Assembly (NCBI GenBank): GCA_963785045.1
Contig: CAWAUC010000013.1
Location: 204,577-268,576, forward strand
Length of the DNA: 64,000 bases
Source of the DNA: an uncultured delta proteobacterium
GTDB taxonomy: Bacteria > Desulfobacterota > Desulfobacteria > Desulfobacterales > SpSt-501
Direction of reading: 5' to 3'
Part shown: positions 29,945 through 54,080 of the stretch, piece after piece
How the letters are laid out: each line of letters starts with the position of its first letter
How positions within the stretch are numbered: position 1 is the stretch's first letter
Program-made: the position numbers and the translations under genes
Notes under the pieces: generated by a model
Database searches by the model: none
Told to the model about the DNA's origin: nothing
What the model saw: the letters and a program-made list of their open reading frames with translations, nothing else

Positions 29945-32900
29945 CTACATGCAGGCGGCCCCTGATCGGTCCGTTCTTTCCGGCACCGTCAGGGCCGAAG
30001 TCTTTTCCACGGTAAGCGTCACGGCCCCCCAGTCTTCCTCGACTTTCCCCTCAAGCAGATACGGCCGCTCGCGGTCCAGCAGGTGGCAGAAACGGCGGTA
30101 GGCCTCGGGGAAAAAAGTGGTTTCCACGAGCCCCGTCTGGTCCTCGAACGTCAGAAACTCCATGGGCTCGCCCTTTTTGGTTTCCACCACCTTGCCGGTG
30201 ATGAGCCAACCGGCGAAGCGCACGCGCCGCCCGATGCGGCGCGGGATATCGGCGGCCTGGACCGCCCCCGTCCGTTTCACGGCGTCGGCGTAGAGTTCCA
30301 TGGGGTGCCGATCGCAGAGGAAGCCGAGCACGGAAAACTCCCGCCGCAAGCGTTCGCGGGCGTCGTCCGGGGGCAGGTGCGGGGTGCGTTTGTCGGCGTC
30401 CGGCGCTGCGAACAGCGACCCGTTCCGGGCCACCCTCCCGGCGGTAGGGCGGGATGGCAGCCGGCGCGTCGATTCCCACAGGAGCTCGGCGCGGCTGGCC
30501 CCCGGGACGAGGGGGTCGAGCGCCCCGCAGTGAACGAGCGCCCGCAGCTCGACTGCATCCGGCCGCACCTGCTCCAGGAAGTCCCCGAGACCTGCGTAGG
30601 CCCGGCCCTCGCGGCCGGCGACGATCCGCTCCTGGGTGGCCGTCGCCAGGCCCTTGATGGACAGCAGACCGACCCGCAGCGTGGCGTTTTTTCCCGTCCA
30701 GCGCACCTCGCTGGCGTTCACATCCGGCGGCAGCACCCCGAGGCCCAGGCGCCGGGCTTCCGAGACATAGGCGAAGGTGCTGTAGAACCCGCCCTGGTTG
30801 CTGATCACCGCGGCCATGAACTCCGCCGGGTGGTGGACCTTGAGAAACGCCGCCTGGAACGAAACGCGCGCGTAGGAAGCGCTGTGGGGCTTGCAGAACG
30901 AGTACCCGTCGAAGCTCATCATCATGTCCCAGATCGCCCTGATCTGCTCGTCGGAAACTCCCTGCGCCCGGGCGCCCTCTCGAAAGCGCCGGGCATAGTT
31001 CTGCAGCCGCAGGTGCCGGTCTTTCTTGGAGAGGATCCTGCGCAGGCCGTCGGCCTCGGCGTGGGAAAACCCGGCCAGCGCCACCGCCACGCGCGAGACG
31101 TCCTCCTGGTAGACCATGATGCCGAAGGTTTCCTCCAGCACATCGGAGAGCAGCGGGTGGATGGGGTCCCACGGCCCGCCGTGCAGCCGACGGATGTACT
31201 CGCGGATGTAGTCGTTGGCGGCCGGCCGGATGATGCTGCTGTGGATGACGAGGTGCTCGAAATCGCCCACCCGCGACTTTTGCTGCAACAGACGCATGGC
31301 CGGGCTTTCGATGTAGAAGCATCCCATGGTGCGGCCCTGGGCCACGGCCTGCTGGGTGGCGAGATCCTCCTCAGGCTCCCAGCGGGCCTCGTCGAACGCG
31401 GCCCCGTTCGCCTGCAGGTTGGCGAGGGCATCGCGGATCACGCCCAGGCTGCGGTTTCCCAGGATATCGATCTTGACCAGGCCGGCGTCCTCCGCCGCGT
31501 CTTTTTCCCACTGGATGATCGGAACCCCCTTCGGTGCGCGTTCCAGCGGCACGTACTCGGCGATCGGCCGCGGGGTGATGACGACCCCGCCGGGATGCAC
31601 GGAGAGATACCGCGGGGTGCCGATGATCCGCTGGGCATGTGCCAGGATCTCGGGCCAGGGCGGTGGGAACTGCACGGCCTTCAGCGCGGGCTGCTTTTTA
31701 AGCTCGGCCAGGAAATCGGCATCCATCTCCTCGGCGCTCCAGTACCAGGGCAGGCGCTTGGCGACGCGGCCGATCTCGGCGGCGGTCAGGCCGTAGACCT
31801 TGGCGACTTCCCGCACCGCCATGCGCGGCTGGAACAGGACGTGGTTTGACACCATGGCGGCGTGGTCGCGGTGGCGGGCGAGCACGGCCTGCAGCACGGC
31901 GTCGCGCTCGTCCCAGGCGAAGTCCACGTCGATGTCGGGCGGGTCCATACGGCCCGGGTTGAGAAAGCGTTCGAAGTAGAGGTTGTGCTTGAGAGGGCAG
32001 ACGTTGGTGATGCCGAGGCAGTAGGCGGCGAGCGAGGCCGCGCCTGAGCCGCGGCCGCAGGTGCGCGGGCTCAACGCCACGATGTCGCGCACGATCAGAA
32101 AGTAGGCGGCAAAGCCCATGGCCGCGATGATGGTGAGCTCCCGCTCCAGCCGCTCCACCACGGCTTCCGAAAGCTCGCTGCCGTAGCGGCGGTGAGCGCC
32201 GGCATAGGCGTCCGCCCGCAGCCGGTCGGCGGCGGACGGCCCATCCGGCCCGGGAAGGGGCGGGAGCACCGTGCCGAAATCCGGGCCGGTGAAGGTGAAG
32301 CGCGCGGCGAGGGTGGCGGTGGCCGCAACCGCCTCCGGGCAGGGCAAAAACCGCCGTGCGTACTCCTCCCGGGGGGCGAGCCAGGCGTCCGCCGGGGCGG
32401 TGTCCCGGGGCGCGAGGCGGGAGAGGGACGTGTTGTGCGCAATCGCCCGCAGGATGCGGTGGACGGCCATGTCTTCCGGCCGCAGAAGAAAACTGTCGGG
32501 TGTGGCGGCCGCCGGCAGCCCCCGTCGACGGGCGGCGGCGCGCAGCGGGTGAGTGGCGGGAAGCGGGTGGCGCGGCATGGCAGCCACCACCGAGACTCCA
32601 GCGGCATGCCAGGCTTCGAGCAGACCGGGATGCGTGGTCAGCACCGTCAGGCCGGCGGCGCGGGCGGGCAGATCGGCCTGCAGGTCGAAGGCGTCCGCCC
32701 GGAGCCGCCGGTGCGTGAGCAGCCGGCAGAGGTTGCGATAGCCCTCCTCGGTTTCGACCAGGCAGGCGGCACTCCGGCCGCGGCCGGGGTCGGTAACTTC
32801 CGCCCCGATGACGGAGGTGATGCCCTCCTCGCGGCAGGCCGTCAAAAAAGGCCACAGCCCGTAGAGGTTGTCGGTGTCGGTCAGTGCCAGGCGGTCATAC

Positions 32901-32989
32901 CCCAACTGCCGCGCCGTACGGCACAGCTGCCGGGGCGAGGCCGTGCCCCACATGAGGGAGTAATGAGAGCGGACGACGAGAGGAACCAT
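29945..32989 (-). CDS. dnaE2: Error-prone-type DNA polymerase III alpha subunit (DnaE2/ImuC-like)
   Basis: Degenerate PHP domain, GRGSGAAS, FERFL, PDIDVDF, HPGG, KIDILG, YSFCKPHS, OB-fold C-terminus; 1014 aa; in the lexA operon. Confidence 0.88.
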   Translation of the reverse strand: MVPLVVRSHYSLMWGTASPRQLCRTARQLGYDRLALTDTDNLYGLWPFLTACREEGITSVIGAEVTDPGRGRSAACLVETEEGYRNLCRLLTHRRLRADAFDLQADLPARAAGLTVLTTHPGLLEAWHAAGVSVVAAMPRHPLPATHPLRAAARRRGLPAAATPDSFLLRPEDMAVHRILRAIAHNTSLSRLAPRDTAPADAWLAPREEYARRFLPCPEAVAATATLAARFTFTGPDFGTVLPPLPGPDGPSAADRLRADAYAGAHRRYGSELSEAVVERLERELTIIAAMGFAAYFLIVRDIVALSPRTCGRGSGAASLAAYCLGITNVCPLKHNLYFERFLNPGRMDPPDIDVDFAWDERDAVLQAVLARHRDHAAMVSNHVLFQPRMAVREVAKVYGLTAAEIGRVAKRLPWYWSAEEMDADFLAELKKQPALKAVQFPPPWPEILAHAQRIIGTPRYLSVHPGGVVITPRPIAEYVPLERAPKGVPIIQWEKDAAEDAGLVKIDILGNRSLGVIRDALANLQANGAAFDEARWEPEEDLATQQAVAQGRTMGCFYIESPAMRLLQQKSRVGDFEHLVIHSSIIRPAANDYIREYIRRLHGGPWDPIHPLLSDVLEETFGIMVYQEDVSRVAVALAGFSHAEADGLRRILSKKDRHLRLQNYARRFREGARAQGVSDEQIRAIWDMMMSFDGYSFCKPHSASYARVSFQAAFLKVHHPAEFMAAVISNQGGFYSTFAYVSEARRLGLGVLPPDVNASEVRWTGKNATLRVGLLSIKGLATATQERIVAGREGRAYAGLGDFLEQVRPDAVELRALVHCGALDPLVPGASRAELLWESTRRLPSRPTAGRVARNGSLFAAPDADKRTPHLPPDDARERLRREFSVLGFLCDRHPMELYADAVKRTGAVQAADIPRRIGRRVRFAGWLITGKVVETKKGEPMEFLTFEDQTGLVETTFFPEAYRRFCHLLDRERPYLLEGKVEEDWGAVTLTVEKTSALTVPERTDRSGAACM

Positions 32990-33002
32990 AGGATTCTAAT
33001 TT

Positions 33003-33415
33003 TTCACCGCAAAGGCGCAAAGGGCGCAGAGGGAACTTCTTCCTTTTGTTTTCCGGTGAGAGGCCGGAAGGCAAAAAACAAGCCGCTCATTCTTTTAGAT
33101 CCTTCACAATTCGCGTGATACCATCGCGCATTACAGGCACGTTGAAGTTCAACAATAATCCCAAATTCAAGCCTGATAGCTTCAAGTACGTCAATAATTG
33201 GGCTTTATAGATCGGTTCAATCTTCTCGCACGCTTGCAATTCAAGGATGATGGTATTCTCCACAACGAGATCCAACCGATACCCACAATCGAGGCATTCC
33301 CCTTTATACACAAGGGGCAATGGGACCTGGCTTTCAAAATCTATCCCGCGCAGCTTCAACTCGTGGCACAGGCACCTTAAAACAATCTCTGCGCTCTCTG
33401 CGCTTTTGCGGTGAA
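33003..33415. mobile_element. Inverted-repeat-bounded element carrying a GxxExxY gene remnant (family A, copy 1)
   Basis: 29-bp IRs 33003-33031 / 33387-33415 (26/29 match), internal hairpin 33044-33076, low-GC cargo. Confidence 0.75.
33087..33374 (-). pseudogene. GxxExxY family PD-(D/E)XK protein, 5'-truncated
   Basis: CLCHELKLRGIDFESQVPLPLVYKG..LDCGYRLDLVVE..IILELQA...AQLLTYLKLSG..LGLLLNFN; the N-terminal GxxExxY segment is deleted and ELK reads ELQ. Confidence 0.88.
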
Positions 33416-33427
33416 GTTTTTCTTTTC

Positions 33428-34600
33428 TTATGCCGCCAAGGTTCGCCCGATTTGCAGCGCATGGTCCCCGAAGCGGTGGCGGACGGCGTCCACGGCGCCG
33501 ATGAGACGGTCGCGTTTTTCGGCCTGCTGCCGGTCGTCGCCGAACAGCGCGAGTTGGGCCGGTGGGAACACCAGCCGGTCGCAGACGAGCCGCAGGTGCC
33601 GGACCCGCACCCGCCGGGCCCAGGCCAGAAACAAGGCCCGGCGGGCAGTCTCGAACAGGGTGAGGTCGTTGGCGGTGGCGGGCCGCGCGGCGGCCTGGCG
33701 GATGCAGCGCGCGCCGTCGGAGTAGTCCAGCACGACGGTCACCCGCCGCGCCGCCCGCCGCCGCCGCCGCAGCTCGCTGCCAACCTGCTCCACCTCCCCG
33801 TAGAGGGCCGAAAACAGGGTGTCGGTGTCGGTGGTGTCGGTGGCGAACGCGTGGTCCGCCGCGACCGCCGGCGGCTTCTCCCCGACCGCGAGCACGGGGG
33901 AAGAGTCGATGCCCCGCACGGTCTCGTAGAGAAACATGGCGCGGCGTCCAAACGGCACCTGCAGTTCTTCCAGGCGCAGGGACGCGACGTCGTCGACCCG
34001 CGTCAGGTTGAACTCGCGCAGACGGGTGAGGTCGTCACGTTCGATGCCTGGGATCAGCTCCAGACGAAGGGGGGCGAGAAACGGCTGCTCCTCGCCCGCA
34101 GCGACGATGTACTCGCCCTCGGGCTTGACCAGGCGGGTAGCCACCTTGGCCACCAGCTTGTTGGGGGCCACCGACCAGATCGGGGCGAGGCCGAGGTGGG
34201 CGCGGATCTCCCGGCGCAGGCGCCAGGCCACGTCCATGGGCGGCCCGAGCAGGCGGTCGGTGCCGGTCGCGTCGATGAAGAGGTGACCGTCGTTCTCGCC
34301 GGCCTCGATGCGCGGGGAGAAGGATAGGGCGCGCTGCAGCAGGGCCCGCATGGCCTGCGCGTAGCGCTCGGGGTGCGGCGGCAGAACGCAGGCATCCCGG
34401 CACCGGCGCGCCGCCCGGGCAAGCGCCATGCCCTTGCGGATCCCGGCCCGAAAGGCCTCCTCGCTCATGTCGTAGACGGCCGCTCGCTCCGCGCCCGCCG
34501 GGGCGATGACCACGGGGCGGCCGGCAAGCCGCCGGTCGATGGTCCGCTCCACCGCCACGGCGAAGTCGGTTACGTTCAAATGAATGATGGCGCGGTCCAT
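33428..34600 (-). CDS. Y-family polymerase homologue, ImuB-like (catalytic residues substituted)
   Basis: IIHLNVTDFAVAVE, S.EA..AGIRKGM, NKLVAKVA, IPGI, clamp motif QLALF, VDAVRHRFG. Confidence 0.85.
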   Translation of the reverse strand: MDRAIIHLNVTDFAVAVERTIDRRLAGRPVVIAPAGAERAAVYDMSEEAFRAGIRKGMALARAARRCRDACVLPPHPERYAQAMRALLQRALSFSPRIEAGENDGHLFIDATGTDRLLGPPMDVAWRLRREIRAHLGLAPIWSVAPNKLVAKVATRLVKPEGEYIVAAGEEQPFLAPLRLELIPGIERDDLTRLREFNLTRVDDVASLRLEELQVPFGRRAMFLYETVRGIDSSPVLAVGEKPPAVAADHAFATDTTDTDTLFSALYGEVEQVGSELRRRRRAARRVTVVLDYSDGARCIRQAAARPATANDLTLFETARRALFLAWARRVRVRHLRLVCDRLVFPPAQLALFGDDRQQAEKRDRLIGAVDAVRHRFGDHALQIGRTLAA

Positions 34601-34621
34601 GTCGCTCTATAATAAAACATG

Positions 34622-34804
34622 CTCACTGCAGAGGCGCAAAGAGCGCAGAGGGAACGATTTTTTTTGAAACGTCGTGAGAGGCGGCGTTTCAAAAAACACC
34701 CGCCGTGAAGCGGCTGAACGGTTTTCATTTGCCGGTGTCGCAGCGGCAAATGAAAGGATTAAACTCTCTGCGCTCTTTGCGTCTCGAGCAAAGCGGGCGG
34801 TGAA
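34622..34804. repeat. Empty inverted-repeat element (family A, copy 2)
   Basis: CTCACTGCAGAGGCGCAAAGAGCGCAGAG ... CTCTGCGCTCTTTGCGTCTC(GAGCAAAGCGG)GCGGTGAA with two internal hairpins. Confidence 0.85.
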
Positions 34805-34828
34805 TTGGATAAAATTGTAGATCTCTTC

Positions 34829-35662
34829 CTATGTCAGTCCTCGTTCGGCGAGCAGCCGCACCATTTGCGCGGCATTGCGGGGGGCCTGGGCGCGGACGTG
34901 GTTGTTGAAGAAGATGACCCCTTGCGCCGCCCGGCCGGCCATGCGGGGCAGGGGGCCGTCGGCCCACTCGCGCAGTTCTTCATCCGTGTAGTCGTAGTCG
35001 AATTGCTTCTGCATGTTGCCCGAGCGCCAGCCCCGGGCGTTGCGGCCGTGGAAGCGGACGTAGAAGAGCTCGGGGTTGGTGACCACGTCGAGCCGCGGGA
35101 AAAGGCCTGGAAGCCCCGGTGCGTCCACGGTCACGAGAGTGGTGCGGCGGCGCTCGAGTTCGGCAAACACCCGGTCCGCGGCCCAGGAGACGTGGCGGAA
35201 CTCGACCGCCAGGGGCAGCCCCGCCAGCGCGTCCAGAAGCTCGGCGAGGTACCGGCGGCTGGCAGCATCACGGGTGAACCCCGGCGGGAACTGCAGCAGC
35301 AGCGCCGCGAGCTGCTGCGCCTGGAGCAGGGGGCCGATGCCTTCCCGGTACTGGGCGGCCTGGCCGCGCCACTGGCCGGGGTCGACCTCGTGGGTCAGGG
35401 TGCGGGTCAGCTTGGCGGCGAAGCGGAAGCCGGCCGGGGCCAGCCGGCGCATGCGCTCGACGGCCGGTGCCTTGGGCATCTGGTACCAGGTGAAATTGAG
35501 CTCGGTGATGCCGAACTGCCGGGCATACAGGGGCAGCATCGCGCCGGCCTTGGTCCCCGGCGGGTAAAACCCGGCGTCAGCCCACTCGGCGTACGAGTAG
35601 CCGCTGGTCCCAACGAGGATGGAGCCGGCAGTGTTTCGATGGGTCGGCGTTGCGTCGTTCAT
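34829..35662 (-). CDS. DUF72 (YecE-like) family protein
   Basis: VGTSGYSY..W..FYP, ELNFTWY, FAAKL..LTH, LLQFPP, AVEFRH, YVRFHGRN, FFNNH...A..NA. Confidence 0.9.
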   Translation of the reverse strand: MNDATPTHRNTAGSILVGTSGYSYAEWADAGFYPPGTKAGAMLPLYARQFGITELNFTWYQMPKAPAVERMRRLAPAGFRFAAKLTRTLTHEVDPGQWRGQAAQYREGIGPLLQAQQLAALLLQFPPGFTRDAASRRYLAELLDALAGLPLAVEFRHVSWAADRVFAELERRRTTLVTVDAPGLPGLFPRLDVVTNPELFYVRFHGRNARGWRSGNMQKQFDYDYTDEELREWADGPLPRMAGRAAQGVIFFNNHVRAQAPRNAAQMVRLLAERGLT

Positions 35663-35718
35663 ATGCCGTATATTCTCAGGAGAGCAGCCCGGAGGCGTTC
35701 GGAGCGGCCCGCGGTCTC

Positions 35719-35856
35719 GAGGAGCGCCCCCCTGGGCGCGAGGGTGTGAGGAGCGGCCCTGCAGGCCTTGAGGCAAGGCCTCTTTTGCCTCAAGCGCAGC
35801 GCTCCACGAGTCTCTGCGCAGCAGGCACGCTCTTCAAGCCCCCTGGGGCGCTCCTC
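35719..35856. repeat. Nested palindromic element between lexA and DUF72
   Basis: Perfect 12-bp IR GAGGAGCGCCCC/GGGGCGCTCCTC; central hairpin CTTGAGGCAA-N8-TTGCCTCAAG at 35767-35794. Confidence 0.6.
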
Positions 35857-53299: not shown

Positions 53300-53324
53300 G
53301 GGTCCTCCTTTTGTTTTGTTGGTC

Positions 53325-53372
53325 CACCAACTCCAAACACCCACACCCCAACACCCGACACCCAAACACCTA
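53325..53372. repeat. Degenerate 7-bp tandem repeat
   Basis: CAACTCC AAACACC CACACCC CAACACC CGACACC CAAACACC. Confidence 0.6.
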
Positions 53373-54080
53373 CTCCCCCAAATAGGCGGCTTTGAGCTTC
53401 GGGTCCCTCAACAGGTCTTCGGCGCGGCCTGCGAACACGCAGGCGCCGGTCTCGAGCACATAGGCCCGCTGGGAGATGTCGAGGGACGCCATGGCATTCT
53501 GTTCCACCAGGAGGATGGTCAGGCCGTCCTCGCGGTTGAGTCGGGCGAGCACCTCGAAGACCTGGTCCACGAGCTTGGGCATGAGCCCCATGGAGACCTC
53601 GTCGACCAGCAGCAGGTCCGGGCCCGATATGAGCGCCCGGGCGATGGCCAGTTGCTGCTGTTCGCCGCCCGAGAGCGTGGATGCCGGCTGAGCGTGGCGT
53701 GCCTCGAGAATCGGGAACAGATCATGCAGCCAGGCGATGCGCCGGCCGACATCGATCTTGCGGCGCAGCCGGTAAACCCCGGTCATCAGGTTCTCCTGCA
53801 CGCTCAGCCGGGGGAATACCCGCGCGCGCTCCGGGACGAGCCGCATGCCTGCCCGCGCACGCTCAAATGCCGCCAGCCGGCTCATTTCCCGGCCCTTGAA
53901 GCGGATGCTGCCCCGGCGCACCGGCACCATGCCCATGATGCCGGCGAGAATGGAGGTCTTGCCCGCCCCGTTGGCGCCGATGATGGAAACGAGCTCCCCC
54001 TTTTCTATTGCGAAGTTGACTCCCGACACCGCGCGGATGTCGCCGTAGGAGATGTGCAGATCGCTCACCTCAAGCAGCAT
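53370..54080 (-). CDS. livF: LIV-type ABC ATPase (LivF-like)
   Basis: GANGAGKTS, LSGGEQQQLAIARAL, LVDEVSMGL, LVEQN. Confidence 0.88.
   Translation of the reverse strand: MLLEVSDLHISYGDIRAVSGVNFAIEKGELVSIIGANGAGKTSILAGIMGMVPVRRGSIRFKGREMSRLAAFERARAGMRLVPERARVFPRLSVQENLMTGVYRLRRKIDVGRRIAWLHDLFPILEARHAQPASTLSGGEQQQLAIARALISGPDLLLVDEVSMGLMPKLVDQVFEVLARLNREDGLTILLVEQNAMASLDISQRAYVLETGACVFAGRAEDLLRDPKLKAAYLGE

Follow-up and report, generated by a model that had tools for sequence, protein, structure and literature searches.

A decayed GxxExxY cassette between phased inverted arrays in a polymerase operon spacer, and its relatives across phyla

The element and its surroundings

The spacer between a Y-family polymerase gene and a DnaE2-like gene was found to contain an element of 413 bp in total, and a second, gene-less element is located one gene further upstream in the same stretch of DNA (64 kb in full, referred to as the window). 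The features of this region are listed below.

29945..32989, minus strand: DnaE-type polymerase gene (DnaE2-like), downstream of the cassette; TIGR00594, 571.5 bits, above the cut-off
33003..33031, minus strand: arm 3' of the gene, three phased words; inverted repeat, tandem period 8-9, 3.0 copies
33042..33079, no strand: inner hairpin between the gene's stop and the 3' arm; stem of about 15 bp, conserved 7-base loop at 33057-33063
33087..33395, minus strand: GxxExxY (PD-(D/E)XK) gene remnant; TIGR04256, PF13366 and alignment
33387..33415, minus strand: arm 5' of the gene, three phased 7-base words; inverted repeat, tandem period 9
33428..34600, minus strand: Y-family polymerase gene (ImuB/DinB-like), between both elements; PF00817 (IMS) and PF11799 (IMS_C)
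34622..34804, no strand: gene-less element in the spacer between the DUF72 and Y-family polymerase genes; arms and inner hairpins
34829..35776, minus strand: DUF72 protein gene, upstream of the second element; PF01904, 188.7 bits

The first element is bounded by an inverted repeat of 29 nt (33003-33031 and 33387-33415) in which 26 of 29 positions are complementary, with 355 nt between the arms. Each arm is in turn a tandem array with a period of 8-9, in which Tandem Repeats Finder recognized about three copies of a purine-rich 7-base word. The GC content was 0.43-0.50 within the element versus 0.67-0.78 in the adjoining genes. An initial annotation of this DNA had described a low-GC GxxExxY remnant inside an inverted repeat, which these values confirm; it had also placed the repeat units about 9 bp apart, and the units are indeed phased, but not at a strict 9. 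When inverted repeats were scored without gaps at +1/-2, the 33003/33387 arm pair reached 20, whereas only 1 of 281 displaced control windows at related loci scored 14 or higher, and none exceeded 15. The arm pattern, with up to two mismatches allowed, was present in 16 of 41 related genomes, and the reversed pattern, used as a control, in none of them. The inner hairpin at 33042-33079 is part of an 'end module' together with the adjoining arm. A 677-nt contig from a public DNA run covers positions 32842-33518 with 2 differences, and this run may be the source sample.

In the folded sense transcript of the whole element, the arms formed the closing stem (-152 kcal/mol, z -4.7). An Rfam search over 32800-35000 at a permissive threshold returned two chance-level matches only, and a scan for promoters and terminators gave counts no higher than chance. 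In three RNA sequencing runs, 6-9% of the words were present; the contigs from one run came only from relatives and were located over the polymerase genes, with none over 33086-33409.

The remnant frame comprises 102 open codons and extends into the arm, with its stop codon at 33087-33089 and homology spanning 33105-33377. It matched the GxxExxY model TIGR04256 (E 1.1e-31, 109.5 bits, cut-off 35) over profile positions 28-116 of 116 only, and PF13366 (PDDEXK_3) with an E value of 1.3e-30 (106.6 bits, cut-off 22). The N-terminal block with the name-giving GxxExxY motif, present in 22 aligned relatives, is absent, and the lysine of the ExK motif, which is K in at least 90% of the alignment rows, is replaced by Q, while the D and E are retained. 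Judged from its sequence, the remnant is a truncated, non-functional member of the GxxExxY family, as the initial annotation had proposed when it called this copy dead.

An AlphaFold2 model of an intact relative (pLDDT 96.3) adopted a restriction-endonuclease-like fold, with the best structural matches to Cas4, Hjc-type resolvases, NucS and restriction enzymes (Z up to 7.6); on the basis of this model, none of the matches appears near enough to point to a specific activity. Foldseek returned no match to the model at E <=0.001, the only PADLOC match was a weak resemblance to Cas4 (E 6e-4), PHROGs gave no match, and no transposase domain was found in the cassette with Pfam profiles. The sole solved-structure profile match, phage T7-type endonuclease I, was too weak to use (E 0.24-0.29). 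A survey of PD-(D/E)XK proteins enters PF13366 as 'unknown' and credits it with several transfers among bacterial divisions and archaea (PMC3424549).

The neighbouring genes could be named at the family level. With NF004225, a model of error-prone polymerases that requires 939 bits, the DnaE-type gene scored 589.5 bits, and all DNA polymerase IV models were below cut-off for the Y-family gene. The initial labels 'imuB' and 'dnaE2' therefore stand as plausible family-level names for Y-family and DnaE-type polymerases whose sequence matches lie below the NCBIfam equivalog cut-offs. The gene upstream of the second element is not imuA; it encodes a DUF72 protein (PF01904).

The second element had been described as an empty one with the same ends, and this was borne out: its left end is 91% identical over 33 nt to an end of the 33003-33415 element, and it contains no gene. 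Its arms are located at 34623-34650 and 34766-34804, the latter interrupted by extra bases, and its inner hairpins at 34660-34696 and 34723-34755. Its RNA folds gave z values of -7.3 and -9.5 against shuffles on the two strands.

The source genome (5.46 Mb, 31 contigs, 97.8% complete) contained a single GxxExxY match, the remnant itself, consistent with the earlier suggestion that any active source would lie elsewhere. Arms of the GxxExxY word type numbered six, four of them in the 64-kb window; the other two were a solo arm on contig 22 and an arm beside two inner hairpins on contig 21. A strict search of the source genome found only one more conserved-loop hairpin, in the second element. With one dead gene and six arms, the GxxExxY cassette system is extinct in this genome.

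Insertion history of the polymerase operon spacers

The gene order DUF72, Y-family polymerase and DnaE2-like gene was kept at 18 loci of the genus, which allowed the spacers to be compared directly. The spacer before the DnaE2-like gene measured 15-27 nt and carried no repeat in 6 of the 18 (G007, G015, G013, G019, G020 and G010), and this short empty spacer was nearly identical in G007 and G015. Elements of the 33003-33415 word type were observed at 5 of the 18 loci, phased inverted arrays of two other word families at 6, and unrelated sequence at 1. Since the orthologous spacers are empty in these relatives, the block is an insertion, in line with the initial annotation's view that such elements insert between operon genes. 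The 33003-33415 block was thus inserted within the genus into a polymerase spacer of about 17 nt, and its N-terminus and catalytic lysine were lost later. The five spacers with elements of this word type are as follows.

64-kb window: 439 nt, truncated GxxExxY gene
G009: 204 nt, both arms, both inner hairpins and the gene's last codons only
G003: 108 nt, two arms back to back
G011 (L070): solo arm, fused to the polymerase gene end
G042: decayed trace of an element

The G009 element is, by the parts that it retains, an internal-deletion derivative of a gene-bearing copy. Internal deletion is thus at least an occasional origin of gene-less forms. Together, the polymerase operon offers an orthologous series that runs from the empty site through a gene-bearing copy, a truncated gene and a gutted copy to a bare hairpin, a solo arm and replacement by other repeat families.

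On the tree of the polymerase proteins, the four basal rows were empty, and in the crown empty spacers, filled spacers and different repeat families were interleaved, which reflects either repeated hits on the spacer or allele exchange via the flanking homology. The spacer between the DUF72 and polymerase genes was empty in 7 of 17 loci and contained various repeat elements in the others. No consistent target-site duplication emerged from two pairs of filled and empty sites or from 42 ends of elements; the flanks are A/T-rich. For the intact cassette of G019, no empty orthologous site was found, as none of 26 further genomes of the genus has a matching neighbourhood.

Several further observations concern these two spacers. 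Arrays of the two other word families were seen in the polymerase spacer of L062-L065 (at about 2660-2880 or on the reverse strand), L067 and L073, and different repeat families have repeatedly settled in the polymerase spacer. The DUF72/polymerase spacer of L061-L068 and L070 contained a palindromic element of about 150 nt, present in at least eight relatives and in three tandem copies in G023 (L064), and often followed by solo arms of the four-helix-bundle type described below. In L070 (G011), the solo arm at about 2640-2683 is fused to the Y-family polymerase gene at its 3' end, where it seems to provide the stop codon.

Pairing of gene and arms across genomes

Relatives of the GxxExxY protein were searched in one genome per species, and of the first 600 pattern matches 581 proved to be relatives. 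The best 80 of these at least 581 relatives (protein identity 57-77%) were analysed as loci, 79 of them with both flanks. These best 80 loci were distributed over more than 12 phyla, with hosts in Acidobacteriota, Planctomycetota, Chloroflexota, several proteobacterial classes, Verrucomicrobiota, Actinomycetota, Bacteroidota, Chlamydiota and others, including two methanogen-related archaea. A locus was regarded as boxed when the 200 nt preceding the gene and the 250 nt following it formed an inverted repeat that scored at least 14. By this measure, GxxExxY genes were located between such arms at 53 of the 79 loci, compared with 1 of 281 displaced controls, so that the repeat is strongly enriched beside these genes. 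Among the 53 boxed loci, 44 carried the word type of the 33003-33415 element with the same outward-facing terminus, 6 showed the reverse arrangement, and 3 were too short to be called. Intact cassettes were compact, with about 10-60 nt from the arm to the start codon and likewise from the stop codon to the arm, and a whole gene-bearing cassette measures about 450-500 bp. Distant GxxExxY subfamilies in the relatives passed the score at 12 of 22 loci, some of them with other words.

The tree of 64 arm-bearing proteins showed a deep split with 99% SH-aLRT support. All members of a clade of 6 carried other words, and 54 members of the clade of 58 carried the same word as the 33003-33415 element, the remaining 4 having short or ambiguous arms. 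The arm word label required 4 changes on the protein tree versus 9.5 in shuffles, and none of 500 shuffles was as low. Host phyla were thoroughly mixed on the same tree. That the arm word type tracks the deep protein split indicates that gene and arms move together; physical linkage by itself would also make arms and protein covary.

At the level of whole genomes, the pairing was looser. Of 201 genomes of the class, 47 contained arms and the gene, 18 arms only, 48 the gene only and 88 neither (odds ratio 4.8, not corrected for relatedness). The refuting outcomes named in the initial annotation, repeats not enriched beside the gene or repeat-rich genomes without it, gave a mixed picture: enrichment beside the gene is strong, and the gene was present in 28 of 35 arm-rich genomes (at least 5 arm matches) and absent from 7, one of which (G134, 99% complete) has 45 arm matches, mostly as tight doublets. 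Arms outnumber genes in some genomes, for example 153 versus 2 or 98 versus 3. Within the genus of the source genome, 13 of 24 sampled relatives had arms, and 9 of these 13 lacked the gene. The association between arms and gene is real and not obligatory; either the arms outlive the gene, or they can move without it.

The orientation of the cassette gene was strongly biased. By a longest-ORF heuristic, it was on the same strand as both neighbours at 47 loci and opposed to both at 3, and the copy at 33003-33415 is likewise co-oriented with its neighbours. This fits a promoter-less cassette that needs host transcription, and insertion tied to the direction of replication would fit too. On the coding strand, arm mismatches were G.T in 39 cases versus A.C in 34, and with the two kinds at similar numbers there is no sign of selection specifically for an RNA stem.

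In the genus, the conserved-loop hairpins were located directly inside an arm in all 19 distinct copies. Over 14 positions, the stems of these 19 arm-adjoining hairpins were 94% paired, compared with 34-54% in shifted controls. Compensatory changes were observed at 11 of the 14 positions of these 14-bp stems, with only 4 wobble cells, a count biased against wobble in the 7 loop-proximal pairs, where G.T was treated as a mismatch when the hairpins were selected. Within one element, the loops of the two hairpins are reverse complements of each other. Since the hairpins lie inside the arms and their loops are reverse-complementary, each end is a module of arm and hairpin, with two-fold symmetry between both ends, which is what a DNA-level reader of transposon-like ends needs and an RNA function does not.

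One cassette-rich island was examined separately. At L230 (G040 contig 99, 5600-12300), an rmlD-rmlB-rmlA-like operon is followed by a string of co-oriented small genes. A DUF5615 gene and a toxin-antitoxin pair of the ParE/HTH kind stand there together with GxxExxY genes, of which there are three, two being identical copies. In this one island the cassettes had neither an integrase nor a transposase beside them, so that an integron-like reading, which was also considered, found no support there.

Sister cassettes, known elements and competing explanations

The boxed layout was not confined to GxxExxY genes. Genes of a four-helix-bundle family (TIGR02436), first seen within intervening sequences (IVS) of 23S rRNA, were found in 33 of the 41 related genomes, and the source genome has three such genes. 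They were located between phased inverted arrays at 23 of 27 loci versus 1 of 94 displaced controls. Their arm words were mostly G/T-rich, and the GxxExxY word was found at none of the 23 boxed loci. Two of the source-genome genes, at 407701-408018 on contig 9 (L195) and at 172390-172707 on contig 6, are boxed with scores of 19 and 26, and the four-helix-bundle cassette may thus still be intact in this genome, where the GxxExxY type is dead. Because these unrelated, non-nuclease genes are boxed alike, the layout is not tied to a PD-(D/E)XK enzyme. The initial annotation had inferred a mobile system built on such a protein; its proposal is partly supported, in that the gene-arm unit recurs across phyla far above controls, and the same layout around four-helix-bundle genes qualifies the part given to the nuclease.

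The window also contains, at 53320-53380, a solo array of C/A-rich 8-base units, placed in a spacer with a minus-strand gene on either side. Read as its reverse complement, the array shows the word type found around the four-helix-bundle gene on contig 6, and no inverted partner was found within 900 nt.

The boxing of a 23S IVS family in the same manner makes ORF-bearing rRNA IVS the closest known kind of element. Such IVS occur in helix 45 of Coxiella burnetii, in Leptospira and in others. The Coxiella element measures 428 nt; RNase III cuts its terminal stem of 28 bp, and its S23p ORF is preceded by three tandem heptamers (PMC4990558). Its origin and mobility are given as unknown, and rRNA IVS are considered selfish, with an ORF that is often decaying. 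The likeness extends to a unit of about 400-450 nt, one small ORF within terminal inverted repeats, a stem of about 28 bp and, in Coxiella, the tandem heptamers that lie ahead of the ORF in the region of the arm. The 33003-33415 cassette differs in that it is located between protein-coding genes and not in a 23S rRNA helix, that its cargo is a GxxExxY protein of the PD-(D/E)XK fold instead of S23p or a four-helix bundle, and that its gene-less copies are numerous in some genomes. It is better filed as an 'IVS-type cassette outside rRNA' with a new cargo.

The analogy drawn at the outset was with RAYT/REPIN systems, in which a single gene is flanked by inverted copies of a repeat that also forms many gene-less, hairpin-forming doublets (PMC3116915, PMC3337134). 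With these systems the present elements share a gene flanked by inverted copies of a repeat that also occurs as gene-less extragenic doublets, the excess of doublets over genes, and the concordance of gene and repeat type. The autonomous/non-autonomous part of the analogy may hold, in that gene-less copies with the same ends exist, at up to 153 arms versus 2 genes. The differences lie in the enzyme fold (PD-(D/E)XK, not an HUH Y1 transposase), in arms made of phased short-word arrays instead of one palindromic REP, in the transfer of the unit across phyla including archaea and its co-orientation with host operons, and in a sister cassette whose cargo is not enzyme-like. MITEs are gene-less internal-deletion derivatives of IS parents with terminal inverted repeats, and the present elements resemble them in their terminal inverted repeats and in the gene-less deletion derivative represented by G009 relative to the 33003-33415 element. 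Unlike in MITEs and their IS parents, no domain of a DDE or other known transposase was found in the GxxExxY cassette and no consistent target-site duplication beside it, and with its gene it reaches no more than about 450-500 bp.

In the main texts of the open literature, no paper linking GxxExxY to repeats, no match for typical arm words and no IVS-type cassettes outside rRNA were found. The cassette type is widespread and apparently undescribed.

We consider it reasonably probable (about 0.6) that the block derives, through decay, from a small insertable cassette whose arms are likely the recognition sites of its own protein, which would promote copying or insertion. The cassette consists of a promoter-less GxxExxY gene within two inverted arms, each of three phased 7-base words, and would be expressed via read-through transcription of the host operon. 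The phased words, joined in the genus by the adjoining conserved-loop hairpin, would serve as DNA-level recognition sites, read most likely by the cassette's own protein, which would promote copying or insertion with the help of host repair functions. After loss of the gene, the arms would persist as inert hairpins, and by analogy with rRNA IVS their stem of about 27 bp in the operon transcript may be cut by RNase III. Several points count against this mechanism: joining strands is beyond a PD-(D/E)XK nuclease on its own, the gene is missing from 7 of the 35 arm-rich genomes and from 9 of the 13 arm-bearing relatives in the genus, no consistent target-site duplication was found, and four-helix-bundle genes are boxed alike. 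A wider proposal is possible but tentative and rather doubtful, namely that GxxExxY proteins are sequence- and structure-specific nucleases that read phased arrays of a 7-base word and drive their own 450-bp cassette and its gene-less derivatives, with rRNA IVS and four-helix-bundle cassettes as sister branches. If it were true, it would define a class of mobile DNA without a DDE, HUH or recombinase enzyme. It would also bring two large protein families, GxxExxY (PF13366) and the four-helix bundles of 23S IVS, together with the origin of rRNA IVS under a single type of element: a very small gene without a promoter, enclosed by phased inverted arrays, that enters the spacers of operons and passes between phyla and domains.

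The arms may instead be made and moved by an unlinked host or mobile-element function, with GxxExxY and four-helix-bundle proteins as trapped cargo, for example for addiction or defence. Two unrelated cargo families in the same layout, the existence of arm-rich genomes without a GxxExxY gene and the occurrence of one relative's GxxExxY cassettes in a small-gene island with toxin-antitoxin modules would all agree with such a passenger role. We regard it as unlikely, however, in view of the non-random cargo: 54 of 58 arm-bearing rows of the clade share one word type, with the other 4 short or ambiguous, and none of the 23 boxed four-helix-bundle loci carries the GxxExxY word. Moreover, neither an integrase nor a transposase was seen beside the cassettes in the one island examined, and the gene is nearly always readable by host transcription (47 versus 3), which suggests that its expression matters.

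An element acting at the RNA level, whose transcript stem tunes the polymerase genes through RNase III processing or as an exonuclease barrier and whose small gene is incidental, is quite improbable. It could draw on the excision by RNase III of classical 23S rRNA IVS of the same layout (PMC4990558), on the stable stem closed by the arms in the sense transcript and on the strong co-orientation with host genes. Yet the transcribed strand shows no excess of G.U over A.C (39 versus 34), the inner hairpins are nearly free of wobble pairs, and their reverse-complementary loops form a two-fold symmetry that can be read alike at both ends only in DNA. Close relatives also lack any element in the DnaE2-like spacer, and phased words are not needed to build a stem. 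The possibility of a chance likeness or of misassembly is practically negligible, as the arm pair scores above all 281 controls, the reversed pattern was absent from all 41 genomes, the 677-nt contig of a public run (possibly the source sample) spans 32842-33518 with 2 differences, and homologous elements occupy the same site in relatives.

The orthologous series at the polymerase operon also offers defined substrates for biochemical tests, and the cassettes create spurious ORFs, change operon spacers and complicate the annotation of intergenic repeats. At L033 (2428-2510), a short arm doublet is located in an open frame of 466 codons and is read through in frame, so that the product gains a stretch of acidic, low-complexity sequence; the GxxExxY ORF next to it likewise has an annotated N-terminus lengthened by such arms. 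At L089 (1890-2520), an intact cassette is preceded by a tandem duplication of about 52 nt that comprises the arm and the gene start, and is followed by a partial second copy of the 3' half of the gene, which points to local rearrangement at the arms. Just upstream of the L089 cassette lies an ORF end that we take to be IS110-like.
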